A stretch of 32,000 nt of DNA from Cupriavidus necator (lineage in GTDB: Bacteria; Pseudomonadota; Gammaproteobacteria; Burkholderiales; Burkholderiaceae), in the NCBI RefSeq assembly GCF_016127575.1, contig NZ_CP066018.1:2070001-2102000 (forward strand), in the 5' to 3' direction. Position numbers and translations under genes: made by a program. Position 1 is the first letter of the stretch; each line of letters opens with the position of its first letter. This document shows, piece by piece, positions 10,193 to 27,608 of the stretch. A model generated the notes under the pieces. That model saw only the letters and a list, made by a program, of their open reading frames with translations. It was not told the origin of the DNA and made no database searches.

Positions 10193-10470
10193 AGCGAACT
10201 CCTGATTCGAAATTTGAATTCGCCCGTGCAAGCAGGGCGGCCGGGCACTTGAACACCGCCCGCAGATCGGCCCGCATGTTTCCCCTTTCGGGTCTTGTAT
10301 CGATGCGCGCTGCCCGGCCTTAGCAGAAAGCTATGGAAGACACGCCACGACTGTCGGACGTGGCAACGCTGCGGGGGGTGTGTTCAGCACCGATAGCTAG
10401 GCTAAGGATTGCGGATACTGCCGCCAATGAGACAACTCTGCATTGCGGTACCGCAACCCATAAGGGCGGA

Positions 10471-11170: not shown

Positions 11171-11980
11171 CTAGTTGCCGGTTGCCAACGCAGGCGCGGC
11201 AGCGGCGTTCGTGTCACTCGATCCCATTTCGGCCAGTCCTACGGTGTAATGACCGCCGGCCTCCCTCTTCAGGGCGAGAAGGTCATAGGTCTTCAGCATG
11301 TCCACCAAGCCCGAATGTCCATAGCTGGCGGGCGAGAAGCTGGGGTCAGTACGCTTGAGATACTGTCCCAGCGCGCCGAGATGCACACGGCCCTCGGAGG
11401 TGTTTGCGGCAAGCAAGCTGATGGCTTCGATCACAAACCTGGGCCGCCGTTTGACTTGAGGCTGCTTTGGCGGAGTTGGCTTCGTCTGGATGGGAGCACC
11501 CCCGACCGCCTCGGTAACCGCTGTGGGGGCCGGTGTCCACTCGAAGAACTGGTCGCTGGCATTGCGCAGCGCTTCGGGCGTCTTTGATTCTCCAACGATG
11601 CAAACCGTCGCGCCACGCTCTCGGAGCTTACGGCAGAGATAGGCAAAATCAGAGTCGCTGGTTACCAGGCAGAACTTGTCAGCCCGGTGGTCGAACATGG
11701 CTTCCAGCGCATCCAGCGCCAGCGCTATGTCGGCGGTGTTCTTTCCCGCCGCGTATTGATACTGAAGGCAAGGCGTAAAAGCCTGCCGAACCAGAGCTTC
11801 TTGCCATGTCTTTCCGAGCGTGCTCTGATTGCCATAGCCGCGCCGGAGCACCACGCGTCCAAACTGGGCCACAACGCGAAGGGCGTAGTCCAGTATCTCC
11901 GGCGTTGTGTTATCGCAGTCGACAAGTACGGCAACGCGAGATTCGGCAACGAGGGGTGGTGCGCTCATCTGTTCGCTCAT
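11171..11980 (-). CDS. NYN-domain (LabA-like PIN-fold) protein with C-terminal OST-HTH/LOTUS-like domain
   Basis: VAVLVDCDNT...GKNTADIALALDA...FCLVTSDSDFAYLCRKLRERGATVCIVG is the NYN layout. The C-terminal part (GRVHLGALGQYLKRTDPSFSPASYGHSGLVDMLKTYDLL) is LOTUS-like. The start is uncertain: ATG 11980 (MSEQM) or upstream up to 12076. Confidence 0.7.
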   Translation of the reverse strand: MSEQMSAPPLVAESRVAVLVDCDNTTPEILDYALRVVAQFGRVVLRRGYGNQSTLGKTWQEALVRQAFTPCLQYQYAAGKNTADIALALDALEAMFDHRADKFCLVTSDSDFAYLCRKLRERGATVCIVGESKTPEALRNASDQFFEWTPAPTAVTEAVGGAPIQTKPTPPKQPQVKRRPRFVIEAISLLAANTSEGRVHLGALGQYLKRTDPSFSPASYGHSGLVDMLKTYDLLALKREAGGHYTVGLAEMGSSDTNAAAAPALATGN

Positions 11981-12216
11981 CGAGTGACGAAGGGTGACGT
12001 CATGATAATGGCAAATCGATTCCCGTCCGTCGAGCGCGTTCCCCGACTGAAGGGCAGCCCGCAAGGGTAGTACCAATTGACGATTGTTGGTCAGTCGCGG
12101 CAGGGCCGGGAATCCGCCAAATGCCGGAGCGGGAACAGGGTCCCGCCCCAGACGGCCTGCCGGCTAACGATTGCCCGATAGCCGGGACGGGGAAAAGAGT
12201 CGATCAAAATGGCGAA

Positions 12217-12552
12217 TTACTGAGAGCTTCCGAACAAACCAATTCCCAGCGGCGGATCAAACGAACCGGCTTCATCGGTCCAGCCGTCGAGGTTGCCGCA
12301 TTTGACCCGGTAGGAAACTAATGCTTTTGTCTCGACGTTGACCAGTCGGCATCGTGTGCCCGGCTGAACGGTTCCCTCGAAAGGCCCGTGCCGTTGCAGA
12401 ACGTCAAGCGGGGCTCTATGCAGCGGAACGGGTGCTACTGCCGTTCGCCCCACAACGTCAATGGTATATCCACCGAACCAAGCGTAAGCGAGGCTGAACG
12501 CAACGGCACATACGCCCCAGACGAACACCTTACCAATTGCCAGACGCGCCAC
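12217..12552 (-). CDS. Small membrane-anchored protein, candidate immunity protein for the upstream effector
   Basis: Proposed GTG start at 12552 (GGAAGG upstream), overlapping the last 23 nt of the effector gene. The N-terminal hydrophobic helix is LAIGKVFVWGVCAVAFSLAYAWFGG, followed by a soluble domain. The immunity role is inferred from position only. Confidence 0.45.
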   Translation of the reverse strand: MARLAIGKVFVWGVCAVAFSLAYAWFGGYTIDVVGRTAVAPVPLHRAPLDVLQRHGPFEGTVQPGTRCRLVNVETKALVSYRVKCGNLDGWTDEAGSFDPPLGIGLFGSSQ

Positions 12553-13099
12553 CTTCGTAACCCTTCCCGTAGAATCTACGTTCGACAAGCCGGTTTGACT
12601 TTTCCAGTGCGGCCAGCAATTCCGCAGGGGATACCGGCATCGGGAGATAGCGGGGATCATGCGCCATGATGCCAATCATCTCCAGCACGTCCGCGACATT
12701 CGAACTACACGAATTATCGAGCACACTATACTCCGCGTCGGCCATTACCCGTCTGTCCAGTTCGACACGGATAATGGTTCTTTCGCGGGGGCTAACCCAT
12801 AAATACAGGCCAACTACATCACGCTTGACCCTTTGCGTATTGCTCTTAAGGTATTCCGCAAGCGGGCCCTTGTAGTACCTTTCATGCGCTCGGCTGTACA
12901 CCGTACCGTCTATGCCTATGGCAACGTGTCCGAAGGCGGATGCAGGGCGTGGCAAGCTGTCGAAGACAAACACCTCAACGTACTCTCGCTTGATATAGAC
13001 GGACTTCGGCTCATCATTGTTGATAGGTGTCGTCGCACGCGTGGTGACCTTTGTCATCCGCTTGTTGTTTGGGGAAATGATCGTATCAGTCATATTCAT
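12530..13099 (-). CDS. Candidate T6SS cargo effector with permuted papain-like (PPPDE/DeSI-like) His...Cys signature
   Basis: ATGA start/stop overlap with the PAAR gene. FGHVAIGIDGTVYS (His) is followed about 70 aa later by YSVLDNSCSSNVADVLEMIG (Cys). That order and spacing match PPPDE-type peptidases. Confidence 0.45.
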   Translation of the reverse strand: MNMTDTIISPNNKRMTKVTTRATTPINNDEPKSVYIKREYVEVFVFDSLPRPASAFGHVAIGIDGTVYSRAHERYYKGPLAEYLKSNTQRVKRDVVGLYLWVSPRERTIIRVELDRRVMADAEYSVLDNSCSSNVADVLEMIGIMAHDPRYLPMPVSPAELLAALEKSNRLVERRFYGKGYEGGASGNW

Positions 13100-13644
13100 C
13101 CTTCCACATAAATTGCAACGTCTTCCGATTGTGTGACGCTCGATAGCAGGTGGGTATGTCCATCGGCGTCTGTCGTGCCGTGTTCGATTTCACCGTTTCC
13201 TCGCCTGATCGCGTAGGCAATACTCGGAACTGGCTCTTGCGAACTCGCGTCGCGAATGACAAAGCGCTCGTCATATGCGAGCACTGAAGCTCTATCTTCG
13301 GATGCGCCGCCATGGATAGCGTTACTCGATGTCTGCGTTTGGTCGTACCCGCTGCGAGAAACCTCAATCGTGAAATCGTTCTGGGTAGGGAATACGAAAG
13401 GCTTGTCTGCACACTGGCAGTTGACGCGGGCGCCACTCACAAGGATTTGTTTGCCGAAGAGATCAAAAGCCGGATAACAATCGTTCACAACCGATCCGCT
13501 GGATTTGCAGGCTGGACACGTCGCAATGTCCCCTTCCACGCCGACGCTCACGCCGTGGTGGATCATGTGGTTTGTATGGGCCATAAGTTGGCCGCCCGTG
13601 CTGGTTGGATCGCCATTCTTTAGTGCGTAGCGAATATCCGGCAT
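13096..13644 (-). CDS. PAAR-domain protein (T6SS spike tip) with C-terminal beta-rich extension
   Basis: MPDIRYALKNGDPTSTGGQLM...GVEGDIATCPACKSSGSVV...GARVNCQCADKP is the PAAR pattern with CxxC / CxC. AAGGAGA lies 5 nt before ATG 13644; the track ORF extends to 13884. The C-terminus (YAIRRGNGEIEHGTTDADGHTHLL...VAIYVEG) is paralogous to the tail of 27054..27608. Confidence 0.8.
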   Translation of the reverse strand: MPDIRYALKNGDPTSTGGQLMAHTNHMIHHGVSVGVEGDIATCPACKSSGSVVNDCYPAFDLFGKQILVSGARVNCQCADKPFVFPTQNDFTIEVSRSGYDQTQTSSNAIHGGASEDRASVLAYDERFVIRDASSQEPVPSIAYAIRRGNGEIEHGTTDADGHTHLLSSVTQSEDVAIYVEG

Positions 13645-13891
13645 TGCCTTCTCCTTGTCATGGACGAAGCTCCATCGATCGTGGCAGATCGCCACCATGG
13701 GATAGAACTGCACGCGGGTTATGGCCGCAATCAGACAAAGCCTAAAAGGCACTGCGAATATTCCCCCTTCGATACCCCAGCGCTGCGCCACCGCCTGCCC
13801 CGGCGTTCGCATCGATCTCAGGGAATGAACAGCCAGGAAGTTCAGCAGTCGCTGCACACGCGGCACAAGGAGAAAGGCACACACAAGGAGA

Positions 13892-13942
13892 AAGGGGACA
13901 GATCTATTTCAAGGTCTAGGTCAGAAATAGATCTGTCCCCTT
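13892..13942. repeat. AGATCT-centred palindromic element, copy 3 (perfect 19-bp arms)
   Basis: aaggggacagatctatttc-N13-gaaatagatctgtcccctt, identical to copy 4. Confidence 0.9.
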
Positions 13943-14057
13943 CGCCCCGTCCCCTTAGCCCCAATGGCGGCCATGTGATCTTCCGTTGAGCCAAGAGGAT
14001 AAGGAGGGTGGGGGTGGGCAAGGGTCGGAAGGGGCGACGGATTACCGATGCGGTCAG

Positions 14058-14660
14058 TCAGCCCTCACCCCGCTGCAAAAACCCCCGCAAAAACAACCGA
14101 ACAGCACGCCGCACCTTCTCACGCCGCGGCGCATCCAACCCCGCCACATCCAATCCCTGAACCGCCCGATGGAACGGCTCGGCCGCCACGCTCTGCAGGA
14201 ACGGCGAGGCCACGAAGGCGATCTCGTCATCGCTCGGATTGCCGGCAGCCCATGTGCGGAATACCGGCTCGAATGAGCGTGCCGCGCCGAGGATGGCGAA
14301 GTCGACTACGGTTCGGGCCAGTTGTGGAAACCGCGGTGCTTCAGCAATCGTCACGCGATACAGGCCCAGGACCTCGGGTCGCAGGATTCATTCGAGCAGC
14401 TCGCAGGCCATGCGGACCAGGCGTTCCTCCAGCGGCTCGCTGTCGGCTTGCGCCGGCTGTCCGGTTCGCAGGTTCTGCGCCACGTAGCGCAGCACGGCCG
14501 CCTCGAAGACTTCTGCCTTGCCGGCGAAGCGGGTGTAGTAGGTCTTCTTGGAAATGCCGGCGGCGGCGGCAATGGCCTCCACGCTGGTGGCGCCATAGCC
14601 ATGCTCAATGAAGAGCCGGGTGGCGTGATCCATGATGGTGTCGGCAAGCTGCCCGGCCCG
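14058..14660 (-). pseudogene. TetR-family regulator pseudogene (paralogue of 23552..24238): 5'-truncated with a premature stop
   Basis: Nearly identical to the intact copy except for a W-to-stop change (TGG to TGA at 14388-14390, ...ELLE* versus ELLEWILRP). Homology is lost upstream of ...RAGQLADTIM at 14660. Confidence 0.85.
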
Positions 14661-14685
14661 ACCAGCGCACGAACGGCAAGCGCCA

Positions 14686-14791
14686 GATTGCCGACGAAGC
14701 CGCCAACGTTCGCCAGGCTGTTGATCGCACCGATGCACGCCGCTGCCGTCGTCCCGCCGAGGAATGCCGTCGGCAACGTCCACATGATCGG
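14686..14791 (-). pseudogene. Short MFS-transporter-like fragment
   Basis: PIMWTLPTAFLGGTTAAACIGAINSLANVGGFVGN resembles a C-terminal MFS helix motif (linsigNlgGfvgP). It is bounded by a stop upstream and by the TetR-duplication junction downstream. Confidence 0.35.
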
Positions 14792-14816: not shown

Positions 14817-16535
14817 TCACCCCGCGGCGTCCGCAACGCTCGGAGCAAGCTCTTGAACGCTGCCGTTCGCGACGCGATATACGCGATCTGACGCCTGGAC
14901 CAGCGCATGGCGATGCGTAATCACAATTATCGTTGGTACCCGTTGCCGGACACGTGCGAAGATTCGCGCCTCGCGTTCTGGGTCGAGCGATGACGTGGGC
15001 TCATCCAGAATAATGACCGCTGGGCGGCGCGCGAGCGCACGGCCCAGCGCGACACGCTGGCGTTCCCCTCCTGATAGGGCCCTGCCTTGAATGCCCAGCG
15101 GGCGATCCAGGATATCGCCGTTTCCTTCCGCGGCGATCTCGTCCAGTTCGAGCAAAGCAATGAGTTCGTGCAGTGCGTGGTCTGACGGCGGGTTGTCACA
15201 GCCGTAGGTAAGATTCGCCCTGAGTGAACCGGTGAGGATCATCGGCGCTTGAGGTGCAACAGCGACTTCGCGTGCGATATCGCTGACGGACAGCTTGCTG
15301 ACGTCCGCGCCAAAAAGGCGAACAGTGCCAGCCGCGGGGCGGGCGAGTCCGAGCATCAAGTGGACCAGGCTCGATTTGCCCGCGCCCGATGGCCCGGTGA
15401 GCGCGACAAGCTCGCCCTGCCTGATAGTGATGTTCACGCCCTGCAAAAGCTGCTTCTCGCCTTGTGTGACAACTGCGTGCTCGATGCGGCAGACTTCGTT
15501 GGCAGTTCGGTCGATGTGCACGCTAGATTCGCTGCGCTCGATTGGCAGCTCCAGAAGCCCGAAACTCTCGCGCAGCGCGAGATGATTGCGACGCAAATCG
15601 GACAGTGATCCCGCGAGGGCAGTGAAAGGCATCGCCAGTGTCACGATGTAGCTAACGATCATGACGAAATCGCCCGCGCGGAATGCCGAACGGGTGACGC
15701 CATAGGCTGTCGTCACCGTGAAGAGCGTGAGCAAAAGGCCGGTGCAGATGGCTTGCGCCGCAAGCAGAAGCGCGAGCCGGGTGTTTCCGCGGGTTACTTT
15801 GCCGATATACACATCAAGCGTGCGGTGCAACGCGGAATCTTCTCTCGCGTACGCGTTGTTGAGTTTGATGTCGAGCATGAATCCGAGTTTTTCAACAAGA
15901 TGGCTCGACAGCATGTCGGCACCGCTGAAAATCTCCTCGTGAGCGCTCTTGCTTTTGTCCGCGAGGAACCATGTTGCGGCAAAGAGAAGCAACATGGATA
16001 TGGCAAATCCTAGAGCGAACGCGCGGTAGGTCAGTTGCCAAAGAACGATGCTGGACAGTATCAACTGGAGAACAGTCGGGACTATTGCCCAGAACACCGC
16101 AAACGTGATTGCACTGAAAGCTGCGCGGCTTCGCGCGATGACTGAGACCAGCTTGCCCGGATCTTCTGCAGTCAGGCGGGGGTAGTCAACTCGGATCAGT
16201 CTGGCAAAGATGGCGTTATGGAATGCGGCATCACACCTTGCGAGAACGGCTGCGGAAAGCATGGCTTTCAGCCAATCGAATGCGCGAGCGGTAGTCCAGG
16301 CGAGTCCGTAGGCGGCTGCCAGAAGCACCGGCGAGCCAGTAGCGCTATGCGTGGCGTCTACAGATAGAGCATTGGTTGCCTCACGCAAGAGGTAGGGGAC
16401 TAACGTCGACAATGCCGCGACCAGCGTTACAAATAAAGTTGCTCCGCAGAAGTGGATTGGCAAGGCTGGATATTCTCTGACCGTGATTCGGTAGGCGAAG
16501 ATCCAATCCTTATACAAATCCATAAGAAACCTCAT
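14817..16535 (-). CDS. ABC exporter, fused transmembrane + ATP-binding domains
   Basis: About six hydrophobic segments in the N-terminal half. Walker A GPSGAGKSS, signature LSGGERQRVALGRAL, Walker B VIILDEPTSSLD. I preferred ATG 16535 because GGAGG lies 8 nt upstream; the track ORF starts at 16544. Confidence 0.9.
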   Translation of the reverse strand: MRFLMDLYKDWIFAYRITVREYPALPIHFCGATLFVTLVAALSTLVPYLLREATNALSVDATHSATGSPVLLAAAYGLAWTTARAFDWLKAMLSAAVLARCDAAFHNAIFARLIRVDYPRLTAEDPGKLVSVIARSRAAFSAITFAVFWAIVPTVLQLILSSIVLWQLTYRAFALGFAISMLLLFAATWFLADKSKSAHEEIFSGADMLSSHLVEKLGFMLDIKLNNAYAREDSALHRTLDVYIGKVTRGNTRLALLLAAQAICTGLLLTLFTVTTAYGVTRSAFRAGDFVMIVSYIVTLAMPFTALAGSLSDLRRNHLALRESFGLLELPIERSESSVHIDRTANEVCRIEHAVVTQGEKQLLQGVNITIRQGELVALTGPSGAGKSSLVHLMLGLARPAAGTVRLFGADVSKLSVSDIAREVAVAPQAPMILTGSLRANLTYGCDNPPSDHALHELIALLELDEIAAEGNGDILDRPLGIQGRALSGGERQRVALGRALARRPAVIILDEPTSSLDPEREARIFARVRQRVPTIIVITHRHALVQASDRVYRVANGSVQELAPSVADAAG

Positions 16536-16630
16536 CGTCATCACCTCCAGGCATCAACGTCATATGCGGCCTCCAGGCTCAGAAATTCGCCCCCTTTTGC
16601 GAATTGACTATCCGGGCATCGGGCGCCCTA

Positions 16631-17659
16631 TCAAGCTGACGTTCGCGCCACGAGTTGTCGTCTGCCAAGCTCTTGTCGCGCAATAGACAGGAATGCTTGC
16701 AGCAGATCGGGCGCTCCTTCTGTGCTATGTACGACGCCTAGTGGGTCGAGCGGTGCGGTGATAGCGATGTCCAGCTCGCACACGCGCCCGCTGGCCACCA
16801 TCCCTGTCGATACACTGCGCGGCAAAAGGGTAACGGCTCCAGGTTGCTGGAGAAATCCTTCGAGCACGGATAAGGACATAGTTGAGAGCGGAAACGAGGT
16901 GGCATTGGGCAGCGCGCCGAGAACGATGCTCTCAAACATCTCTCGCAGTTGGACGCTGGCTGGTGGCAATACCCACCGCGCTCCATCCAGTGCTGCGAGG
17001 GACAAGCCAGCCACCATAGACAGCGGGTGAGACGATGCGGCGACAATGATTGCATCATCCTCAAGCAATGGCTCGAACATCAGTTCCGCAGGTAGTCTTC
17101 GAGGATCCCTGCAGAACAATGCATCCAGTCCACCTCCAATCAGCAGCGGCAATAGGCGCGCACCCGAATCCTCCTCTAAGTCGACGTGCACATCCGGATG
17201 CGTGCCATAGAAGGCAGCCAGGTGTGGCGCGATCAGTGCGTAGGAAGCAGCCGGTATGGATCCAATGCGCAATGCGCTGATAGCGCCCCGTTTGCTGGCC
17301 GCAAGATACTCAGCAGATTGTTGGAGCCTGGCCATGACTTCGCGAGCGCAGGAGATCAATCCACGGCCGCTCTCGGTTGGACGAATTCCGCGCGCATGAC
17401 GCTCGAATAGCCTCATGCCGATAACCCTTTCCAACGCTGCCAGCGCCTGGGTGGCGGCCGACTGGCTCATGCAAACCTCAGAAGCGGCACGCGCAATGCT
17501 CCCGCAATCTTCCACCATCACGAGTAGCTGAAGGTGTCGCAGACGTCCCTGCCTGACAAGGCGCGCATGGATAGTCTTGGCGAGCAGTAAGCTGCGGGTA
17601 CAGGCAATCGCAGGACGCTCTGGTGGTTGTGGAACTAGATCGCTCGCGATTCTTGTCAT
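16631..17659 (-). CDS. LysR-family transcriptional regulator
   Basis: HTH region LRHLQLLVMVEDCGSIARAASEVCMSQSAATQALAALERVIGMRLFER followed by a periplasmic-binding-protein-like effector domain. It has an unusually long (about 40 aa) N-terminal extension if the start is 17659. Confidence 0.85.
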   Translation of the reverse strand: MTRIASDLVPQPPERPAIACTRSLLLAKTIHARLVRQGRLRHLQLLVMVEDCGSIARAASEVCMSQSAATQALAALERVIGMRLFERHARGIRPTESGRGLISCAREVMARLQQSAEYLAASKRGAISALRIGSIPAASYALIAPHLAAFYGTHPDVHVDLEEDSGARLLPLLIGGGLDALFCRDPRRLPAELMFEPLLEDDAIIVAASSHPLSMVAGLSLAALDGARWVLPPASVQLREMFESIVLGALPNATSFPLSTMSLSVLEGFLQQPGAVTLLPRSVSTGMVASGRVCELDIAITAPLDPLGVVHSTEGAPDLLQAFLSIARQELGRRQLVARTSA

Positions 17660-18188
17660 TTGACAGCCGCAGATTTGGTGGTCTTCCTACCTAGGAAATT
17701 TCCTGATCACCTTAACGTAGATTCGAGAGAGGCCCGGAGTCCACCGTGCTGCTGCAAAAGCGTCTGCGGATAGCGTCTCTCATTTTCCGATTACGTATCG
17801 GCGATGGATACTGTCTCGGCCATAGCCTTTCCTTTCGCCCACGGCCTAGGAAATTGAGTTTAGGTCTGGCGGATGGTTCCTACCTTGCGTAGTTTCATGA
17901 ACTTTGATTTGAATCAGAGTAATGAAAGGCTAGTAGGGCTGGCTAGTAGTGCTGGGGAGACTAATCGCTCTCTTCCCCGCTGATGCGTATCTGGATAGAT
18001 GGATTATTCCTAACATATCGACCCCTACCACGCTGGACATGTCCTCACAGCCGCAAGCGAAGATATTGAAGAATCCGATAGCCGCAATAGAAATTCATCT
18101 TCAATAGGTCGCACCGGACTAATAATCTTGATTCGAATCGGCTTGCATGGTGCGTTGCCGATTCAAGTTGAGGACAAAGGAGATGAAG

Positions 18189-18380
18189 ATGAATTCATTG
18201 CACAAGCACGAGGCCACTCAACCTTCAGCACGTCCGGTGATCTTGTTCGAGATTTACAAGGATCTGGTGGTTGCCGACTCACGTACTTCGATCCACTCGC
18301 CACTCGAGACACCAAAGCCGAAACCGGAGCTGCCGAAGAATCGGTTTCCCGGAGACAGTTCAACGCTAGCCTATATGTGA
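18189..18380 (+). CDS. 63-aa ORF immediately upstream of the AsnB-like gene; possible precursor peptide or small accessory protein
   Basis: MNSLHKHEATQPSARPVILFEIYKDLVVADSRTSIHSPLETPKPKPELPKNRFPGDSSTLAYM. AAGGAG (18177-18182) lies 6 nt before ATG 18189. The stop is 39 nt before the next gene. I recognised no homology. Confidence 0.4.
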   Translation: MNSLHKHEATQPSARPVILFEIYKDLVVADSRTSIHSPLETPKPKPELPKNRFPGDSSTLAYM

Positions 18381-18419
18381 TCAACCATTGCGGGGCCGCT
18401 TCCGCCCGGAGAAATTTCT

Positions 18420-20006
18420 ATGCTGAAGGCAACTATCAACATCGATGATCTGGTGCGGACGCCCCGTATTCATAGCGGGGGCATTCAGGTGGAGGGAAGC
18501 GACATTACTCCATTTCCCAACCCATGCCTCCGTACTGTATTTGTACAAGGGAAGGATCGTTGGATCTACGCCGTGCTCGAACGCGGTGCGCAGAAGTTGG
18601 ACGATCGTCTTCCGACTGTGCATGATGCCCGGTCATTTGAAGACTATGCCAGCATCCATCGGACAATTCTGAGTTGGCCTCTTGATTATGTGTTGATTGA
18701 AGCCGTTTCCAATGGGGAAAATGCACAGCTTCGCATCACGTCTGGGAGGCTTGGAGTCGCTCCCCTCTATGCGACTGTGGGAGTGGGGCGCGTGTTGCTG
18801 TCCTGGGACTGCGCTGACTTGATCTCTCGGGGGAGTCATTCTGCCGATTTTGAGGTGCTGGCCCATGCTCTAGGCCTGCGCACCTTCTACGCCAGTCGCC
18901 AAGTTTGTACAGGAATAGCGCTGCTGACCGAGCGCTCGTCACTCAGTCTTGACGCAAACAGCGCGTCATTCGCTTACCCGTCCGCGGCGCCAGCGCTATC
19001 GCCGCACGCTTTGCGGGATGGAGTGGATGCGCTGGGTACTTTCGAATCATACTTGGAGGGCGCCATCGGTGCTCGTCCTCTCGATGCGAGTGCATGTATA
19101 GCGGAACTAAGCGGAGGCATGGATTCTGCATCGGTAGCGATTGCCGCAGCGCGCGTTCTCGGCGGTCTGAAGCAATCGGCTGGCATCGTGCTTGCTGGAA
19201 CGGACCATACCATTCAGAACACCAGGCGGAGGCTGATCGCGCGGGAAATCGGCCTTCGCGACGCGTCCTTTGACATGTCGACGCATATGCCTAGTTTGGA
19301 TCTGGATCCTTCCGCGAGAGAACCTGAGCATCCCCTTGGCGAATTTTATCTCGAGGCATTCGATGAGATATGGCGTCACGCGGCAACGCTTGGGTGCCAT
19401 ACACTTCTGACGGGAATCGGCGGCGACGAACTGTTTCCTCGCTATCAGACCGACAAGGCAGCCGGCGACTGGAAAAGACCTGCGCGGTTGATCGCGGCAG
19501 AACGTATTGCCCGATCAATTCTGAGCCGTCGTGCCCAAGTAGCCTTGGATACCGAGCCGTTGTATTGCGCGCCCGCCAGTGTTGTTCCCCATACTGGGCT
19601 GCTGGCTCATGCCTCGCGCTCGCCGTACATGCTGCGACGCGGACTTTGGCCGGTGAATCCACTGTGCGATCCGGCGCTGATTGGATTCTGTCATCGGTTA
19701 CCGGGGGAATTTCGCCTTGACCGGCAACTACTCCGCCAGTATCTCCGTACTCGTCTGGAGCATGATCTATTTCCAATCGGGTACAAAAAGGAGACATTCG
19801 ACTACGTGCTTCCGGAGGTCATCGGGTGCCATTACGCTCGATTGAGTGCGCAACTCCGCGAAAGTGCACTGGCTGACTTTGGGTTGGTTGATATGACCGC
19901 GGTGAGGAAGGTGCTAAGTGGCGTAGCCGATACACGCGACGTTACCGCGACGGCGCCACTCGCAATTTTTCTTTTTCTTGAGCGCTTCATGAGACAGATC
20001 GCATAG
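18420..20006 (+). CDS. Asparagine-synthetase-B-family (PP-loop) enzyme lacking the N-terminal catalytic Cys; lasso-cyclase-like architecture
   Basis: PP-loop IAELSGGMDSASVA, LLTGIGGDELFPRY, and a GATase-II remnant SGRLGVAPLYATVG...LLSWD. The N-terminus is MLKATI (no Cys2). GGAGA lies 7 nt before the ATG. Confidence 0.8.
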   Translation: MLKATINIDDLVRTPRIHSGGIQVEGSDITPFPNPCLRTVFVQGKDRWIYAVLERGAQKLDDRLPTVHDARSFEDYASIHRTILSWPLDYVLIEAVSNGENAQLRITSGRLGVAPLYATVGVGRVLLSWDCADLISRGSHSADFEVLAHALGLRTFYASRQVCTGIALLTERSSLSLDANSASFAYPSAAPALSPHALRDGVDALGTFESYLEGAIGARPLDASACIAELSGGMDSASVAIAAARVLGGLKQSAGIVLAGTDHTIQNTRRRLIAREIGLRDASFDMSTHMPSLDLDPSAREPEHPLGEFYLEAFDEIWRHAATLGCHTLLTGIGGDELFPRYQTDKAAGDWKRPARLIAAERIARSILSRRAQVALDTEPLYCAPASVVPHTGLLAHASRSPYMLRRGLWPVNPLCDPALIGFCHRLPGEFRLDRQLLRQYLRTRLEHDLFPIGYKKETFDYVLPEVIGCHYARLSAQLRESALADFGLVDMTAVRKVLSGVADTRDVTATAPLAIFLFLERFMRQIA

Positions 20007-20009
20007 CTT

Positions 20010-20984
20010 ATGACTGAAGCCGCTCCCTCCAACGACGTCGCGCTCGTGCGACAGGCCATCGTAGCCGCCTATGGCATAGACGTGGTCGATGTCCGTGAAG
20101 TCGTACGCGGAGTGAACCGAACTTTCTACCTAAGCGAGTCTGGGGATCGGACGTACTATCTGCGCCTGTACAGAATCCATGGACGGGGCGACGTAGAGAT
20201 TGACGCCGAGTTGCGTCTGCTTGAGCGGATCGAGCAGGATGAGGTGCTGGCCATATCGGTCGCACGCCCAACGCTAGAAGGAGCACGCAGCTTTCGCGTT
20301 GCCTTGTCGGATGGTGCGATGCGTCGGGCAGCGTTGTTCAGCGGGGCTGCGGGCCGCCCCTTGGGAATGACGGGGGATGATCTTGGCGTGGCAGCGCAAG
20401 CGCTGAAACGCCTTCATGGCCAGCCGCCGTTAAAGGAGTGCGCACCACGCAGGCAGATCGCCGATCTTTGTGAAGCCGATCGGACGCTGACCCGTCTGGC
20501 AGAAAGATTCACCTTCGCTGGCCATGCTGTCGCCGCGGCTCGGAAACGTTGTGAGCGCCTGGTGGCCGCGGGCTGGCCGCCTGCTGAGATGCCGATCGGC
20601 TTTTGCCATGGCGACTATCGTGTGGCAAACATGCGGATCGATGGCCCCCGGATCACGTTGTTCGACTTCGACGATTGCGGATGCGGGCCGCAATGGTTCG
20701 ATCTGGCCACCATTGGATGGTGGCTTGAGATTGACGGCAGATACGATGCGGCCTTTTTGTGGCGCGCGTTCGTCAGTGCCTACATGCCGGCATTGCATGG
20801 ATCTCCGGCCTTCCGCCATGCAATCTCGCTTCTGATCCTACTTAACGAGATTAACTCGATTCGCTTCTTGCTCGATTACTGTGCACTGGACGACGATCTG
20901 TGGCGCGACGTGTGCAAGCGCCTGGATGATATGAGCTACCGGGTGGTATCGGGGCAGCTCGCGATTAACCGTTGGCCTGCGTGA
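20010..20984 (+). CDS. APH-fold phosphotransferase (aminoglycoside/homoserine-kinase-II/SrkA-like kinase family)
   Basis: Catalytic loop FCHGDYRVANMRI and metal-binding ITLFDFDDCG. The N-lobe reads TYYLRLYR...EIDAELRLLERI. The ATG lies 3 nt after the preceding stop. Confidence 0.8.
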   Translation: MTEAAPSNDVALVRQAIVAAYGIDVVDVREVVRGVNRTFYLSESGDRTYYLRLYRIHGRGDVEIDAELRLLERIEQDEVLAISVARPTLEGARSFRVALSDGAMRRAALFSGAAGRPLGMTGDDLGVAAQALKRLHGQPPLKECAPRRQIADLCEADRTLTRLAERFTFAGHAVAAARKRCERLVAAGWPPAEMPIGFCHGDYRVANMRIDGPRITLFDFDDCGCGPQWFDLATIGWWLEIDGRYDAAFLWRAFVSAYMPALHGSPAFRHAISLLILLNEINSIRFLLDYCALDDDLWRDVCKRLDDMSYRVVSGQLAINRWPA

Positions 20985-21034
20985 GCATGCTGTAATGCCT
21001 GTCGATGGGGACTCACGTGAATCTGGATGGTGAA

Positions 21035-21553
21035 ATGAAAGTGCGCGCTGCGAAGCAGGGCGATCTGGGGTGGTTGCTGGTCCTGCATTCGGGCGGCGCG
21101 TTCAATCGCTGGATAATGCGTGGACCCGAAGATCTGCAATCCCTAGCGGACGAATTCTCCTTCAAGCTAGCAGCGCAGCGTAAGCGCCAGGGCGTATTCG
21201 TCGTGGTGGACGTCAATGGCATAGGTCGGGGGTACGGTGTGCTGCTTTTGTCTCTCACAGGGGATAGCGCTCATGTGGAATTCGGCGTGGACCCTCGCTA
21301 TCAGCGCAAGGGCATTGGTGGCGCGCTACTCGACGAGATCTTGCGTGCTGGTTGCCGTATCGGGCCAAAGCTCAAACGCGTCAAGGCAGTATGTCATCAA
21401 GATAACGAGGGCTGCATCCGGTTGCTAAGGTCACGAGGCTTCATGTCGTCAGCGGCGCCTGACATAGCAGCGCTTCCATACCTGTCGTGGCACCTGATCG
21501 TTGATGCTGGGGAGATTCCTGCTTGCTCACCCCGCTTCATAAATGGAGCCTGA
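21035..21553 (+). CDS. GNAT-family N-acetyltransferase
   Basis: Acetyl-CoA motif VDPRYQRKGIGGALLDEILRAG. The start is uncertain: ATG 21035 (MKVRAAKQGD) or ATG 21005. Confidence 0.8.
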   Translation: MKVRAAKQGDLGWLLVLHSGGAFNRWIMRGPEDLQSLADEFSFKLAAQRKRQGVFVVVDVNGIGRGYGVLLLSLTGDSAHVEFGVDPRYQRKGIGGALLDEILRAGCRIGPKLKRVKAVCHQDNEGCIRLLRSRGFMSSAAPDIAALPYLSWHLIVDAGEIPACSPRFINGA

Positions 21554-21603: not shown

Positions 21604-22446
21604 CTAGCCCATGGGCTGGCGAAAGTATCTCCCCCCCAGATAGGCCAAATACAGCTGATGCTCTGGTCGACTAGCCGAACAAAGCTCTCCAAAGATCGCT
21701 TGGTAACTGATGGCTTTGAACTTCAGTTCATCGCCAACCAGTTCATGGAACCTCCGGATCTCGTCCCGATGACGTTCCCCGTGTGGTCCTGGCCAATCGA
21801 AGTACACATACCGGAGTACCCAACGGCTTTCGTACTGACGGGCCAGCGCAAGGGCATGCTTGAGTAGCTGTGGCGCGCCAATGTGCCGGAAGGCCTCCCT
21901 GCCCGCTTGCAGGGCTTCCGCTAGCGCCTGTGCCCTCGGCAACCCGACCTCTTCCCAGCGGCTGCGCCCCCGCGCAAGGTATGGCGGCCTGAACGCCTCG
22001 CCAGCCTGCGTTGCCTTGCCGCGCAGCCACTCCGTGAACTTGCTCTCCAAACCGGCCATGATGCCGTTCGCAAGTGGCAGGCACACATCCAGATTGGCGT
22101 GACTGTCGACTCCCGTGGACAGTTTGGATTCGAATAGCGCTGCGGTGGGGCAGGAGGGCAGCGCCAGCGCATTCATCAATGGCGTGGCATCGGCGCAATC
22201 GGTCCAGAAATCGAAGATGTTCGCGGCCAGCGCAGAGGACGAATGCAGGGCTCGCATCTTTGCTGGCTTGTCCCCACGCTCCACCAGTTCGCTACCGTCG
22301 CCGTTTGCAAATGCCGCAAGTGTTGCTGGCGAGAGTGGCCGCATCAGATTCAGGTCCAGATTGGGGACATAACCGCGTGCGTCAAAGGCGATGCCCCGGT
22401 TCGCTGCCCACTCCTGCTGTTCCCTGCAAATGGCTGCTACAGACAT
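21604..22446 (-). CDS. PD-(D/E)XK-superfamily nuclease-like protein
   Basis: ALHSSSALAANIFDFW followed by NLDVCL...AGLESKFTE (D...ExK arrangement). ATG 22446 is preceded by GGAGG at 6 nt; the track ORF extends to 22599. Confidence 0.55.
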   Translation of the reverse strand: MSVAAICREQQEWAANRGIAFDARGYVPNLDLNLMRPLSPATLAAFANGDGSELVERGDKPAKMRALHSSSALAANIFDFWTDCADATPLMNALALPSCPTAALFESKLSTGVDSHANLDVCLPLANGIMAGLESKFTEWLRGKATQAGEAFRPPYLARGRSRWEEVGLPRAQALAEALQAGREAFRHIGAPQLLKHALALARQYESRWVLRYVYFDWPGPHGERHRDEIRRFHELVGDELKFKAISYQAIFGELCSASRPEHQLYLAYLGGRYFRQPMG

Positions 22447-22689
22447 GAATGACCTCCGTCGAGCGCGTTCCCCCAGCCGACCGGTGGTGTTGCGAGGGGT
22501 CGTGGTTACGGTTGCCGATTGTTTGTCAGTCGGGGTAGGGAGGGAATCCGCCATATGGCGGAACGAGGATTGAGCCAGGCCTGATGACCTGGCTGACACC
22601 CGCTCAATCTATGCCGTAGTCGTAAGGTCATCAAGGCTCAGCAGGCGTTCGCCAACGCACAGACATATGCATGAGCCCAGGAAAGGATT

Positions 22690-23340
22690 GTGCAGCCGAA
22701 CCACCTGCGAGCTCCGATGTTCGACCTGATTGATGCGCTGCTTTTCGATGACGATTTTGTCCAGTTGTGGGAGCCTCAGTATGACGCGATCGCGCACGAT
22801 GAAGCGGAATACCAGTCCCTCGTCCAAGCAGTACGCAAGGACGTCGATTCCATTGGTGCCATAAGGGAAGCGACCCTCAGGCGAATACTTGAATGGAAAT
22901 CCGCCCGCACCAAGGGTCATGTGCACTGGTGGAACTACGGTCTCTACATCGAGACTGTGAGGGACTGTCTCTCCATGCACGGGGATGATCGACTGGACGC
23001 CATCTGCAAACTACCGGGTGTTCGAGAGCGCGTTGGATCGACAATTCTGCATTTCATCTATCCGGACACCTACCCGATTTTCGACATTCGAACCCTGGAA
23101 GCGCTCCGCTATCTTGGCGCCGACCTCGGGAAATCCTTCAGTGTGAACAACTACTATCGATTTCGCGAGTACCTCATCTCGACCCAAGTGGTGCTGAACA
23201 GGTGGACTCTCCGCGAATTGGACCGCGCAATCTTCGCCTTTCATAAGCGCAGCCCGGAGATATTCGGCGCCACACTGGGCAATGGCCGCCGTGCCCAATC
23301 GACGACGCATCCTTACTACTGTCCGAGATCGGGAGCCTAG
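22690..23340 (+). CDS. Hypothetical protein, HhH/OGG-fold-like
   Basis: ILEWKSARTKG...ICKLPGVRERVGSTILHFIYPDTYPIFDIRTLEALRYLG resembles the helix-hairpin-helix segment of proteins annotated as OGG-fold. GTG start after AGGAAAGGA; alternative ATG at 22717. Confidence 0.45.
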   Translation: MQPNHLRAPMFDLIDALLFDDDFVQLWEPQYDAIAHDEAEYQSLVQAVRKDVDSIGAIREATLRRILEWKSARTKGHVHWWNYGLYIETVRDCLSMHGDDRLDAICKLPGVRERVGSTILHFIYPDTYPIFDIRTLEALRYLGADLGKSFSVNNYYRFREYLISTQVVLNRWTLRELDRAIFAFHKRSPEIFGATLGNGRRAQSTTHPYYCPRSGA

Positions 23341-23379
23341 CGCCTCCACCTCGCCCAGCCGTTTGGCGTCCTGCGGAGA

Positions 23380-23430
23380 AAGGGGACAGATCTATTTCAA
23401 GGTCTAGGTCAGAAATAGATCTGTCCCCTT
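23380..23430. repeat. AGATCT-centred palindromic element, copy 4 (perfect 19-bp arms)
   Basis: aaggggacagatctatttc-N13-gaaatagatctgtcccctt, identical to copy 3 including the loop. Confidence 0.9.
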
Positions 23431-23551
23431 CGCCCGTCCTTAGCCCCAATGGCTGCTGCGTGATCTGCCGTCGGGCCAGGCGAGCCAAACGGATGAGGAG
23501 GGCGGGGGTGGGTATGGGGTCGGAAGGGCGACGGATTGCCGACGCGGGCGG

Positions 23552-24238
23552 TCAGCCCTCACCCCGCTGCGAAAACCCCCTCAAAAACAACCGAACAGCA
23601 CGCCGCACCTTCTCACGCCGCGGCGCATCCAACCCCGCCGCATCCAATCCCTGAACCGCCCGATGGAACGGCTCAGCCGCCACGCTTTGCAGAAACTGCG
23701 AGGCCACGAAGGCGATCTCTTCATCGCTCGGATTGCCGGCAGCCCATGTGCGGAATACCGGCTCGAATGAGCGTGCCGCGCCGAGGATGGCGAAGTCGAC
23801 CACGGTTCGGGCCAGTTGTGGAAACCGTGGTGCTTCGGCAATCGTCACGCGATACAGGCCCAGGACCTCGGGTCGCAGGATCCATTCGAGCAGCTCGCAG
23901 GCCATGCGGACCAGGCGCTCCTCCAGCGGCTCGCTGTCGGCTTGCGCCGGCTGTCCGGTTCGCAGGTTCTGCGCCACGTAGCGCAGCACGGCCGCCTCGA
24001 AGACTTCTGCCTTGCCGGCAAAGCGGGTGTAGTAGGTCTTCTTGGAAATGCCGGCGGCGGCGGCAATGGCCTCCACGCTGGTGGCGCCAAAGCCATGCTC
24101 GATGAAGAGCCGGGTGGCGTGATCCATGATGGTGTCGGCAAGCTGCCCGGCCCGTTCCAGCGAGGGACGTCCGGATGGCCGCACGGATGGTTGTCTGGAT
24201 GGCGCCGCCGTCATTGCGGTTTCTCTGCCCTTGCGCAT
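23552..24238 (-). CDS. TetR-family transcriptional regulator (intact copy)
   Basis: HTH ATRLFIEHGFGATSVEAIAAAAGISKKTYYTRFAGKAEVF. It is divergent from the MpaB-like gene. The start is uncertain (24238 or 24217; the track ORF extends to 24301). Confidence 0.85.
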   Translation of the reverse strand: MRKGRETAMTAAPSRQPSVRPSGRPSLERAGQLADTIMDHATRLFIEHGFGATSVEAIAAAAGISKKTYYTRFAGKAEVFEAAVLRYVAQNLRTGQPAQADSEPLEERLVRMACELLEWILRPEVLGLYRVTIAEAPRFPQLARTVVDFAILGAARSFEPVFRTWAAGNPSDEEIAFVASQFLQSVAAEPFHRAVQGLDAAGLDAPRREKVRRAVRLFLRGFSQRGEG

Positions 24239-24339
24239 TGCAATACTGTTCTCCGCTGTCGGCCTGATTGGGTGAGTGCCACGGCAGATGCGGGCCCGCA
24301 TCTGCGCATAGGGAAAGCATGGACTTGCGCATCGGCATC

Positions 24340-25923: not shown

Positions 25924-26355
25924 TCAGAAGGGCCAATGTGGCCCGCGATGTGCTCGACATTTTTGCGACGCGATGACAAGGGTGTTGGAATGCATCCGCG
26001 GCGCATCAATTTGTGCGGCGCTATGCCGCTCAGGAAGCTGACGAGTAACCCATCGATCAGTCGCGAGAAACACCGCTACAAATAGGCAGACACCAATGGC
26101 GTAGGAGAGAGATGCCCGCAACCGTTCGCCCGGCCGGCGCAGTAAGACAAACAGCAAAAGCAGCAGACCGCAGAGCGCCAATACAGCTGCGCAGAAGACT
26201 GTGATGCCAGCAATCGCAGCTAATGGGCCGGTTGTGACCTGTGCGAGCGTAACGGGCGTCCGAGCGGCAATCACCGCGAACGTTATACCCAGCAAGGTCA
26301 TGGCCATGGCACATAGATCCACTAGGCGAACTACCTTACTTGCTTTGCGTTTCAT
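25924..26355 (-). CDS. Polytopic membrane protein, candidate immunity protein to the adjacent lipase effector
   Basis: Three to four hydrophobic helices (MAMTLLGITFAVIAA, LAAIAGITVFCAAVLALCGLLLLLFVLL, AIGVCLFVAVFLA). The ATG abuts the lipase stop with 0-nt spacing. Confidence 0.6.
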   Translation of the reverse strand: MKRKASKVVRLVDLCAMAMTLLGITFAVIAARTPVTLAQVTTGPLAAIAGITVFCAAVLALCGLLLLLFVLLRRPGERLRASLSYAIGVCLFVAVFLATDRWVTRQLPERHSAAQIDAPRMHSNTLVIASQKCRAHRGPHWPF

Positions 26356-27051
26356 CTACCTAAGCCCTTCGGCAACAAGACGTTCCGCCAGTGCCGCCCA
26401 ACGTCGCGGACTGTCCGAAACGACATGAGCATAATAGAAATGTCCTTCGCCTTTTCCTGCAAGCATCTGCCTGCTGAGCAATGGGGCACCAGCCACCAAC
26501 TCCAGCCACGGAATGCCTGCATGGATCGGATCCCCATACTGCACCAGGTCAATCACGATAACCTTCCGGATGTTCCGATGGCCGCGCAGGTCCGTGAGAA
26601 ACGCTTCGGCGATTGGCGACCCTACCAGAACCAGATGGTCGATGATATGCCCTTGCCTGGCGTATGACCACGCGGTCTGAGCGGCCAGCAATGACCCATA
26701 GCTGTAGCCGATCAGGTTGAACTGAGGTGCCTCCGCAGCCATGCCGCTGGTGATTGTCCATTCGCCATCGTCGCGGTTTCGGATCACCATGCCAGACCGG
26801 ATGGCATCCAGCAGCATGCCACCCAAGGCGTAGTCTTGCGGCAACGCGTGCGTTGCAGAGTTGGTCAGCCCGGCAAAGCACTGGGAAATGCCGGCTCGAC
26901 GGAAGGCTGCCAGCTGAGGTTGGACGTATTGGCCATCCAGCCCAGCACCACCCCAATACAATGTACCCCGCGGCCGCAACAGGTACACCTTGACTGGTTC
27001 CCTATCCGAAACCGGCGTCAGCCGGACGTTGACAGTCTTGAGCGGTTGCAT
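26356..27051 (-). CDS. Alpha/beta-hydrolase with GxSxG nucleophile elbow; candidate T6SS lipase/esterase effector
   Basis: NLIGYSYGSLLAAQ (G-Y-S-Y-G) and a later LVLVGSPI strand. The start lies 2 nt after the PAAR stop. Confidence 0.65.
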   Translation of the reverse strand: MQPLKTVNVRLTPVSDREPVKVYLLRPRGTLYWGGAGLDGQYVQPQLAAFRRAGISQCFAGLTNSATHALPQDYALGGMLLDAIRSGMVIRNRDDGEWTITSGMAAEAPQFNLIGYSYGSLLAAQTAWSYARQGHIIDHLVLVGSPIAEAFLTDLRGHRNIRKVIVIDLVQYGDPIHAGIPWLELVAGAPLLSRQMLAGKGEGHFYYAHVVSDSPRRWAALAERLVAEGLR

Positions 27052-27053
27052 GG

Positions 27054-27608
27054 TTATGCACCCTCCCCAAAGACCACAAGCCTGACCGTCGCCGCACGGT
27101 CCGCGAACACAGGTGTGGTGAAGCCGTTGCTGTCGGTGTGGCCTTCATGCGTTCCGGTATCGCCGATCAGGCGATACCGCCAGTTTGCCAAGGGCCGTCC
27201 GCTGCCTTCATCAAGCAACTGGATGCGCTGGTCGTAGCTGGCGGGCTCGCCTGAGTGCAACGCTTGCGTGGTCGCAGCAAAGCCGCTGGGCATAGCGACA
27301 CGCAGCTTCGCAATGTGGTCCGCGGTGATAGTCATCGTGAACGGACGCGAGGCATGAAAGACAGGCGCTGGTCGGCAACCGCATGCACAGATGTCTCCGC
27401 TGAGGGCCACTTCCTTGCCTCTATCTCTAGAGGGGATGCGCGGACCGACACAGACAATCACGCCCGGGCGCTTGCATACAGGGCAGTAGACGGCATCGCC
27501 CTCGCGGGCAACTGGCTTGCTGTGCCAGAAGTAGGAACTGCTGCCGCCAACGATGACAGCGCCGTTGTCGGCCTTGTCGCCTCTGACCAGATAGGTTCGG
27601 GTCACCAT
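27054..27608 (-). CDS. PAAR-domain protein (T6SS spike tip) with C-terminal beta-rich (transthyretin-like?) extension
   Basis: YLVRGDKADNGAVIVGG...AREGDAVYCPVCKRPGVIVC...LSGDICACGCRPAP. The C-terminal part reads YRLIGDTGTHEGHTDSNGFTTPVFADRAATVRLVVFG. GAGGG lies 6 nt before the ATG. Confidence 0.85.
   Translation of the reverse strand: MVTRTYLVRGDKADNGAVIVGGSSSYFWHSKPVAREGDAVYCPVCKRPGVIVCVGPRIPSRDRGKEVALSGDICACGCRPAPVFHASRPFTMTITADHIAKLRVAMPSGFAATTQALHSGEPASYDQRIQLLDEGSGRPLANWRYRLIGDTGTHEGHTDSNGFTTPVFADRAATVRLVVFGEGA

Follow-up and report, generated by a model that had tools for sequence, protein, structure and literature searches.

We analysed a 32,000-nucleotide stretch of the Cupriavidus necator genome (NZ_CP066018.1, positions 2,070,001 to 2,102,000; hereafter "the window", with all coordinates counted from its first base), focusing on the gene cluster at 14817-21553. 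The original prediction had read this cluster as a locus for a peptide that is made on the ribosome and modified after translation (RiPP) or, failing that, for a small molecule. On the plus strand lie genes for a 63 amino acid (aa) peptide, an AsnB-like enzyme, an APH-fold kinase and a GNAT acetyltransferase, and a LysR-type regulator and a fused transmembrane domain–nucleotide-binding domain (TMD-NBD) ABC exporter are transcribed divergently from them (Table 1). Our open reading frame (ORF) listing and domain scans reproduced all of the gene content and coordinates that had been claimed. An AAGGAG Shine-Dalgarno (SD) site is found 6–11 nt ahead of the ATG of the 63-aa ORF, 39 nt separate this ORF from the AsnB-like gene and only 3 nt separate the AsnB-like stop codon from the kinase. 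In the 39-nt spacer between peptide and enzyme the predicted RNA fold was not more stable than in shuffled sequences (z = +0.86). The divergent intergenic region is lower in GC than the genes around it (52–61%), and the cluster as a whole (52–60% GC) belongs to a rearranged island of low GC that lies downstream of the ribonucleotide reductase genes. The AsnB-like protein was 100% identical to a Cupriavidus necator database protein. As the peptide-enzyme-kinase-GNAT block was also found in C. alkaliphilus, B. cepacia and three metagenomic contigs, this gene arrangement is not a chance juxtaposition. The locus probably belongs to an undescribed, widespread ribosomal peptide family which does not need a leader protease, and its enzyme is predicted to join the side chains of a Lys and an Asp near the C-terminus of the peptide.

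Table 1 Coordinates of the peptide cluster and associated features within the 32,000-nucleotide window.
Feature	Position	Strand	Evidence and comments
ABC exporter, fused TMD-NBD, 575 aa	14817-16544	-	ABC_membrane + ABC_tran; predicted product exporter
LysR-type regulator	16631-17659	-	HTH_1 + LysR_substrate; divergent from the peptide operon
Divergent intergenic (regulatory) region, 529 bp	17660-18188		48.8% GC
Precursor peptide gene, 63 aa, MNSLHKHEATQPSARPVILFEIYKDLVVADSRTSIHSPLETPKPKPELPKNRFPGDSSTLAYM	18189-18380	+	AAGGAG SD site; homologous ORFs beside family enzymes
Leader motif Pro38-Leu39 (P[M/L])	18300-18305	+	Alignment of family peptides; predicted recognition motif
Predicted core K50-M63, KNRFPGDSSTLAYM	18336-18377	+	Lys50 codon 18336-18338; Asp56 codon 18354-18356
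AsnB-like PP-loop enzyme, 528 aa	18420-20006	+	Asn_synthase; PP-loop S231-S236 at 19110-19127; predicted macrolactam synthetase
APH-fold kinase, 324 aa	20010-20984	+	PF01636; HGDYRVAN, DFDD
GNAT acetyltransferase, 182 aa	21005-21553	+	Acetyltransf_1, _7 and _3 matches
Degenerate second kinase copy with GNAT 3' remnant	27834-29087	+	Repeat families D1, D4, D7, D9 and D11; blastn, three-frame translation

The original prediction had hinged on whether the 63-aa ORF is conserved next to related enzymes, and we found that it is. A small ORF adjoined the enzyme homologue in 38 of 38 complete loci, lying upstream in 37 and downstream in one (L072). At loci with intact flanks these ORFs were 36–71 aa long, were on the same strand as the enzyme and came from at least three phyla, and most of the family peptide ORFs were preceded by GGAG-type SD sites. 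None of the peptides matched a Pfam or NCBIfam model even at E ≤ 10. Between C. necator and C. alkaliphilus the ORFs differ at 28% of nucleotides with a dN/dS of 0.32, and codons 46–63 (the last 18) contain 8 synonymous changes versus 1 non-synonymous change; purifying selection in the peptide is concentrated on the core. On the strength of this conservation we regard the 63-aa ORF as a genuine, conserved and presumably translated precursor gene, and the proposal of a RiPP-type cluster, with a conserved precursor and a co-conserved enzyme, is upheld. It was wrong, however, in its choice of core: S13...E21, with a tail of 42 aa, had been put forward as the closest fit, whereas the conserved, selected part of the peptide is its 14–18 C-terminal residues, which include Lys50 and Asp56. 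We rejected the S13...E21 register on the ground that this stretch lacks conservation even when only the two Cupriavidus species are compared. Elsewhere in the family, two tandem precursor genes with different cores were observed at L071 (about 240-807) and L112 (2378-2876), and two tandem enzyme paralogues at L067 (2969-6566); such tandem genes are a form of diversification characteristic of RiPP loci.

When the first 28 peptides were aligned with MAFFT, no columns except Met1, one Lys and one Asp were invariant, and in the C. necator peptide this Lys and Asp are Lys50 and Asp56. All 39 peptides compared, whose hosts include Beta-, Gamma- and Alphaproteobacteria, Bacteroidota (Tenacibaculum) and Streptomyces, contained K-x5-D (n = 34) or K-x6-D (n = 5) at 6–15 residues from the C-terminus, and the motif held even though enzyme identity falls to 25–32%. 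Composition-preserving shuffles produce the motif with a probability of ~ 0.23 per peptide, but it was found in every peptide across many unrelated sequence groups and is therefore not due to chance. Counting the invariant Lys as +1, the Asp is at +7 or +8, position −1 is mostly Pro and position −2 is never Thr, while the residue after the Asp is variable (I, S, A, R, G, L, K or N). The leader ahead of this core is 21–54 residues long across the family and 49 residues long in C. necator. A P[M/L] motif is located 12–13 residues before the invariant Lys in 25 of 25 main-clade proteobacterial peptides, and in Xanthomonadales it belongs to a longer leader motif, NPFG[IV]Q[ML][DE]xP[ML]. This fixed distance implies recognition of both leader and Lys by the enzyme on one intact chain.

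The 528-aa enzyme matched the Pfam model Asn_synthase (E = 9e−10) and no GATase Pfam domain, and its N-terminus, MLKA, provides no Cys2. This residue was absent from all 32 family members examined, which begin M-[LIF]-K/H/Q..., while among 12 outgroup ORFs nine start with MCG and a tenth (L041) has glutamine-amidotransferase domains. The PP-loop SGGMDS (residues 231–236), GGDELF and K457-E458 were invariant in a 30-member alignment. With no Cys2 and a score of 33.2 bits against the AsnB model TIGR01536 (cut-off 267.1), the enzyme is not an asparagine synthetase of primary metabolism; the original prediction had named grouping with such synthetases as an outcome that would refute it. Scores against lasso-cyclase models were also low, at 19.1 bits for NF033535 (cut-off 525) and 31.8 bits for NF033561 (cut-off 300). 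Across the family, NF033561, which describes lasso-type macrolactam cyclases, was weakly matched by 30 of 30 members (best E = 7e−13) and AsnB by 29 of 30. The enzyme is thus about as distant from lasso cyclase profiles as from AsnB profiles and lies far below every curated cut-off. The AlphaFold2 model (pLDDT 86.5) consists of two AsnB-type domains alone, with the N-domain modelled confidently, and its best solved match in Foldseek was a beta-lactam synthetase (E = 1e−14), followed by TsnB9, carbapenam synthetase and AsnB. Matches to beta-lactam synthetase, CarA, AsnB and TsnB9 extended across both domains (E = 1e−14 to 1e−8), although sequence identity to beta-lactam and carbapenam synthetases was just 12–16%. 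Beta-lactam synthetases, carbapenam synthetases and lasso cyclases all adenylate a carboxylate and then close an amide intramolecularly. The earlier statement that the enzyme has exactly the architecture of lasso cyclases was too strong for a protein which is far below all cut-offs and whose best solved structural match is beta-lactam synthetase. In a phylogenetic tree the family was monophyletic with respect to 12 outgroup AsnB-like ORFs, mostly true Cys2 amidotransferases of polysaccharide clusters. No natural enzyme-peptide fusions were found among the longer family members.

TsnB9 had the highest query-normalised TM-score of the solved matches (0.64), and TsnB9-type enzymes are hydroxyamidotransferases. 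This raises the question of whether the Asp might be modified without the Lys amine, by amidation to Asn with free ammonia, by ligation of another amine or by aspartimide formation, with the Lys acting as a binding determinant. Enzymes of the AsnB superfamily adenylate carboxylates and take varied nitrogen nucleophiles, and an invariant Asp would be expected under such a scheme. It is nevertheless quite unlikely: the glutaminase nucleophile is missing in all members, leaving no built-in source of ammonia, the strict K-x5/6-D register over at least three phyla exceeds the constraint usual for a binding residue, and the variable residue after the Asp does not favour aspartimide chemistry. The invariant Lys is also left unexplained by such a scheme.

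Enzyme homologues were drawn from genomes, metagenomes, assemblies and plasmids, and a full HMMER scan (E ≤ 1e−30) gave a family of 297 clusters at 50% identity. Members were found in Cupriavidus, Burkholderia, Xanthomonadales, Bradyrhizobium, Mesorhizobium, Rhizobium, Tenacibaculum and Streptomyces, so that the family spans Alpha-, Beta- and Gammaproteobacteria, Bacteroidota and Actinomycetota. A family enzyme was carried by 53 plasmid records, mostly from Rhizobium and Bradyrhizobium but also from Mesorhizobium, Xanthomonas and Streptomyces, and the Bradyrhizobium copy sits among insertion sequence (IS) elements; a megablast search of plasmids with the C. necator operon itself gave no match. 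When flanking ORFs of 31 loci were compared all against all, no recurrent neighbour genes other than AraC-type regulators were found. No transglutaminase-like protease, PqqD/RiPP recognition element (RRE) or B1/B2 gene was linked to the enzyme in the 38 loci, no transglutaminase-like leader peptidase was present in the gene tables of L001-L003 and L105-L112, and domain scans found neither a transglutaminase-like protease nor a PqqD/RRE domain among the genes of the window region. The lack of a B protease and RRE, which had already been remarked upon for this locus, is therefore general across the family. The conserved core consists of the peptide and the enzyme alone, with the kinase, GNAT, exporter and LysR regulator as lineage-specific additions.

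Two plasmid loci illustrate the breadth of the family. On a plasmid of Rhizobium sp. WSM4643 (L114, NZ_CP104042.1, 306475-308305) an enzyme of 25% identity accompanies an annotated 52-aa peptide (...MIKGGKPGDMDKLDV), and the locus is placed between the rhiI/rhiA quorum-sensing genes and nifHDK. Such a gene is carried by 33 Rhizobium plasmids, and its position beside nifHDK and the rhi genes hints at roles beyond antibiosis. On a plasmid of Streptomyces sp. NBC_00334 (L115, 4601-7009) an unannotated 39-aa ORF (...DKMPGGGDNNGDHCSK) is followed by a 490-aa family enzyme whose gene is overlapped by a methyltransferase gene, indicating that the Streptomyces lineage has a different tailoring enzyme.

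These comparisons bear directly on whether the product is a true lasso peptide. In that case an unlinked housekeeping protease would cut before the Lys and the enzyme would join the alpha-amine of Lys1 to Asp7 or Asp8, leaving a tail of 6–15 residues. Counted from the Lys, a ring of 7–8 residues and such a tail are indeed of lasso-peptide dimensions, lasso rings being 7–9 residues in size, and all of the members tested matched lasso-type cyclase models weakly. Triculamin also demonstrates that a lasso cyclase may dispense with B proteins (PMC12070363), although that protease-free route, with its N-terminal core and follower, does not correspond to the architecture found here. The absence of linked B1/B2 genes from all 38 loci, the fixed spacing of 12–13 residues between the leader motif and the Lys, which suggests that the enzyme acts on an uncleaved precursor, and the absence of Thr at −2 all argue against a lasso peptide. 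The Pro usually found at −1 is a poor P1 residue for general endopeptidases, and use of the alpha-amine alone would leave the constant Lys at residue 1 unexplained. We consider a true lasso peptide unlikely.

The kinase, GNAT, exporter and LysR regulator which had been assigned to the cluster are present, but the LysR, the GNAT and this particular ABC exporter proved to be lineage-specific. In C. necator, C. alkaliphilus, B. cepacia, L105 and L106 the cassette comes with kinase, GNAT and ABC genes, and on the short L107 contig the kinase and GNAT alone are visible; the Mesorhizobium locus has a kinase and an ABC/HlyD pair with no GNAT. Stop and start codons of the accessory genes are adjacent or overlapping. 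The kinase matched PF01636 (E = 7e−25; 88.7 bits versus a cut-off of 23.2), has HGDYRVAN at residue 200 and DFDD at residue 219, and gave a PDB match to an APH (6ef6, E = 2e−9). As just 20 homologues were found in a database of 5.8 billion proteins, it should be noted that this kinase subfamily is tiny, and it is restricted to family loci. All kinase-linked peptides share the tail D-S-[SA]-x-[LM]-x-Y after the predicted ring, and Ser follows the Asp at 5 of 5 kinase-linked versus 2 of 27 kinase-less loci (Fisher p = 1e−4, uncorrected for phylogeny). The tail Ser or Tyr is therefore a likely phosphorylation site, and we predict that the kinase phosphorylates the peptide, as tailoring or immunity.

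The GNAT matched PF00583 (Acetyltransf_1; E = 7e−8; 33.2 bits versus a cut-off of 20.7), with QRKGIGGA at about residues 100–107 and RimI and Ard1 as best matches. It is kept downstream of the kinase in Cupriavidus, Burkholderia and L107, and is a putative peptide N-acetyltransferase with a role in tailoring or self-resistance; in triculamin, gelatinamin and albusnodin clusters the GNAT is a self-resistance enzyme which acetylates lysines (PMC12070363, PMC13178200). The exporter contains Walker A GPSGAGKS at residue 384, LSGGERQ at 490 and ILDEPT at 512, is of the ABCB/Atm1 type by PDB search and has no peptidase domain. It is 86% identical to an exporter beside the equivalent cluster of C. 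alkaliphilus, whereas the Cupriavidus, Burkholderia and Mesorhizobium ABC exporters are only 28–33% identical over partial alignments; each lineage thus seems to have acquired its exporter separately, a pattern that speaks for export of the product. Among the loci compared, only Cupriavidus has the LysR regulator, which occupies the same position in C. alkaliphilus (76% identity) and is missing from the loci of Burkholderia and Xanthomonadales.

Antibiotic resistance is a classical role of APH kinases and GNATs, and capreomycin and viomycin producers use both. Together with the fact that the best solved-structure matches of the AsnB-like enzyme act on small molecules, this could suit an operon for the biosynthesis or detoxification of a small molecule, in which the kinase and GNAT confer resistance and the small ORF is a regulatory leader or an unrelated protein. 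The small-molecule alternative of the original prediction is nevertheless disfavoured, and we think it very improbable, since the conserved unit is the peptide and the enzyme without precursor-supply genes, the C-terminus of the peptide is under strong purifying selection with invariant reactive residues, and most family loci lack the kinase and GNAT.

What remains is a carboxylate-activating enzyme without an ammonia domain, together with a peptide in which an invariant amine/carboxylate pair is held at fixed spacing, and a Lys-Asp bond is the simplest reading of this combination. We propose that the enzyme makes a side-chain macrolactam between Lys50 and Asp56 in an ATP-dependent manner on the leader-bearing precursor, and from the sequence comparisons would give this a probability of roughly 0.55. 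Having lost its glutaminase chemistry and kept the ATP-pyrophosphatase (PP-loop) synthetase domain, the enzyme would bind the N-terminal leader via the conserved P[M/L] motif and adenylate the side-chain carboxylate of Asp56. The epsilon-amine of Lys50, six residues upstream, would then attack, giving an isopeptide bond from Lys50 N-zeta to Asp56 C-gamma and a product with a 7-residue Lys-Asp ring and a 7-residue C-terminal tail, or with an 8-residue ring in some relatives. No leader protease or RRE would be needed because the nucleophile would be a side chain, with no N-terminus to unmask. In the Cupriavidus/Burkholderia/Mesorhizobium branch the APH-fold kinase may then modify the peptide, with the Ser or Tyr of the D-S-[SA]-x-[LM]-x-Y tail as its probable target. 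The GNAT would have been added in Burkholderiales only, and kinase and GNAT may each serve in tailoring or self-protection. The ABC exporter would remove the product, and in Cupriavidus the divergent LysR would control expression.

Several observations weigh against this macrolactam proposal or parts of it. The Lys-Asp bond is predicted from sequence conservation alone, and the invariant Lys could alternatively be a cleavage or recognition determinant. There was no lasso cyclase among the solved-structure matches of the enzyme, and as no lasso cyclases were included among the outgroups of the tree, the placement of the family relative to lasso cyclases and beta-lactam synthetases is not given by it. 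Bradyrhizobium peptides have the D-S...Y tail but no linked kinase, and no exporter or immunity gene is linked in the Xanthomonadales loci. A consensus scan found no sigma-70 promoter above background in 17660-18188; promoter and terminator consensus matches were at or below shuffle expectation. 

We compared the predicted system to known peptide and small-molecule pathways. Canonical lasso clusters (McjABCD: precursor, B protease with or without RRE, AsnB-like C cyclase and ABC exporter) likewise start from a ribosomally made precursor whose leader is N-terminal and use an ATP-dependent PP-loop enzyme of the AsnB superfamily in which the glutaminase-like N-domain is inactive. An Asp acceptor 7–8 residues from the amine donor and a tail of 6–15 residues are also common to both, and a fused ABC exporter is shared at some loci. 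They differ in that family loci have no B protease or RRE, in that the precursor has no Thr at −2 and always has Lys at +1 rather than a small residue, and in that the enzyme scores 19–32 bits against lasso cyclase cut-offs of 300–525. The predicted amine donor here is a Lys side chain and not the N-terminus, so that leader removal would be unneeded. Closer in gene content is the triculamin/albusnodin type (TriA, TriC, TriT and TriD; PMC12070363, bioRxiv 10.64898/2026.07.03.736388), a minimal precursor-macrocyclase-GNAT-ABC cluster with no leader protease, in which the GNAT has been shown to confer self-resistance by acetylating ring lysines (PMC12070363). A precursor, cyclase-like enzyme, GNAT and ABC exporter without a B protease were likewise found in the window, L001, L004 and L105. 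Triculamin, however, has an N-terminal core with a follower and an N-truncated cyclase, whereas here the core is C-terminal and the enzyme has two domains; an APH kinase is present here, and the phyla and peptide sequences differ.

Beta-lactam and carbapenam synthetases are the best solved matches (Foldseek E = 1e−14 to 1e−11), have a Cys-less N-domain and use carboxylate adenylation followed by intramolecular amine attack, as is predicted here. Their substrates, though, are small molecules of the clavulanate and carbapenem pathways, while here the enzyme has a co-conserved peptide, and no beta-lactam or carbapenam pathway genes (e.g. CEAS, CAS, CarB/CarC) were found in the window or related loci. 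In graspetides, ATP-grasp ligases make Lys-Asp/Glu omega-amide rings. The resemblance to graspetides and microviridins would lie in the predicted Lys-Asp side-chain macrocycle on a leader-bearing precursor with no prior proteolysis, but they use an ATP-grasp enzyme and an acyl-phosphate versus the PP-loop and predicted acyl-adenylate here, and there was no ATP-grasp domain in the cluster or conserved neighbourhoods. Class V lasso peptides (lariocidin, gelatinamin) also have an isopeptide bond with a Lys side-chain amine, and a GNAT for self-resistance in the cluster (PMC13178200). Unlike the bond predicted here, theirs joins Lys to the C-terminus and is made extracellularly by the clostripain-like transpeptidase GelP, with B1/B2 retained (PMC13178200). 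The class V Lys cross-link was accordingly rejected as an example of a cyclase product.

The locus thus falls outside lasso peptides, having no B protease, RRE or precursor signature, and outside graspetides, having no ATP-grasp enzyme. No description of an AsnB-like Lys-Asp RiPP family was found in the full-text literature searched, subscription-only papers being outside its reach. We regard the family as a candidate new RiPP class built on known chemistry, with the Lys-Asp bond as a prediction. The chances appear to be about even that it is a class of its own, defined by a 7–8-residue Lys-Asp macrolactam which a PP-loop enzyme resembling lasso cyclases and beta-lactam synthetases would form on a leader-bearing precursor, with no protease or RRE. 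Given its tail of 6–15 residues, a threaded, "two-tailed" lasso is even conceivable as the product.

The region around the cluster contained further signs of rearrangement. The second copy of the APH kinase gene, 7.8 kb downstream, is 89% identical to the first and frameshifted, and is fused to the final ~ 50 nt of the GNAT gene and ~ 100 nt of downstream flank, with a TetR fragment directly after; a fragment of this copy is annotated in C. necator (P0282, 184 aa). It is a relic of a rearranged partial duplicate of the cluster 3' end. A ~ 0.8-kb segment with a TetR/AefR-like regulator gene occurs three times (13887-14790, 23375-24301 and 29088-29251). The regulator gene is intact at 23552-24301, frameshifted and truncated at 14058-14783, where it abuts the 3' end of the ABC exporter gene, and reduced to a 164-bp fragment at 29088-29251. 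The first two copies are ~ 94% identical direct repeats that flank the peptide cluster and two more genes, forming a unit of 9.5 kb. Each of these repeats has at its outer edge a 61-nt perfect palindromic element, GGAGAAAGGGGACAGATCTATTTC...GAAATAGATCTGTCCCCTTCGCCC, which is 100% identical between 13887-13947 and 23375-23435 and has a weaker copy at ~ 7010-7059; it could be a repetitive extragenic palindromic (REP)-like element, or a recombination or terminator hairpin. The direct repeats and the broken kinase copy point to recent rearrangement in an island rich in competition and defence genes, which include PAAR proteins, a STAND NTPase, a DndB-like gene and REase-ARP.

Within this island, 4990-9604 (44–54% GC) contains a DndB-like gene at 4990-6024, an unannotated gene for a 310-aa protein at 6028-6960 and a gene for an 833-aa STAND/AAA NTPase at 7103-9604 (-), and has the appearance of a module for defence against phages, inserted immediately behind the genes for ribonucleotide reductase. 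The only Rfam match in the window, which contains no tRNAs, was outside the peptide locus: a full-length match to sRNA-Xcc1 at 10231-10319 (-), inside the low-GC island (81 bits versus a gathering score of 53). The sRNA-Xcc1 family is known from Xanthomonas and is associated with integrons and mobile DNA. A protein with NYN and OST-HTH/LOTUS domains is encoded at 11171-12076. PAAR-domain proteins are encoded at 13096-13884 (-) and 27054-27608 (-), within the regions 11171-13884 and 25924-27608. The second PAAR gene is followed by a thioesterase/lipase-like gene and small DUF4386-like genes repeated ~ 4.8 kb away, with repeats at 26007-26370, 30770-31134 and 31653-31706 in the area of the DUF4386-like genes. 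These regions look like type VI secretion system (T6SS) effector and immunity cassettes with spare immunity genes. After the GNAT, 21604-23340 contains a REase-ARP nuclease gene at 21604-22599 (-) and a gene for an unannotated 216-aa protein. The nuclease is 78% identical in C. alkaliphilus (L004, 2402-3347), where its gene is upstream of the LysR gene on the other side of the cluster, and it seems to travel with the cluster in Cupriavidus.

The proposal makes predictions at the level of single residues in the C. necator peptide, namely Lys50 and Asp56 for the predicted ring and Ser57 or Tyr62 for the predicted phosphorylation. If the Lys-Asp prediction is true, macrolactam synthetases of the AsnB type would not be confined to the N-terminal ring closure seen in lasso peptides, and two genes, for peptide and enzyme, would suffice to produce a constrained cyclic peptide with no proteolytic step. 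Such a minimal cassette would be attractive as a tool for the cyclisation and display of peptides. The prediction, if true, would also define a large family which is not named by current Pfam or NCBIfam models and which lies outside the canonical features by which lasso clusters are recognised (B protease, RRE and Thr at −2).

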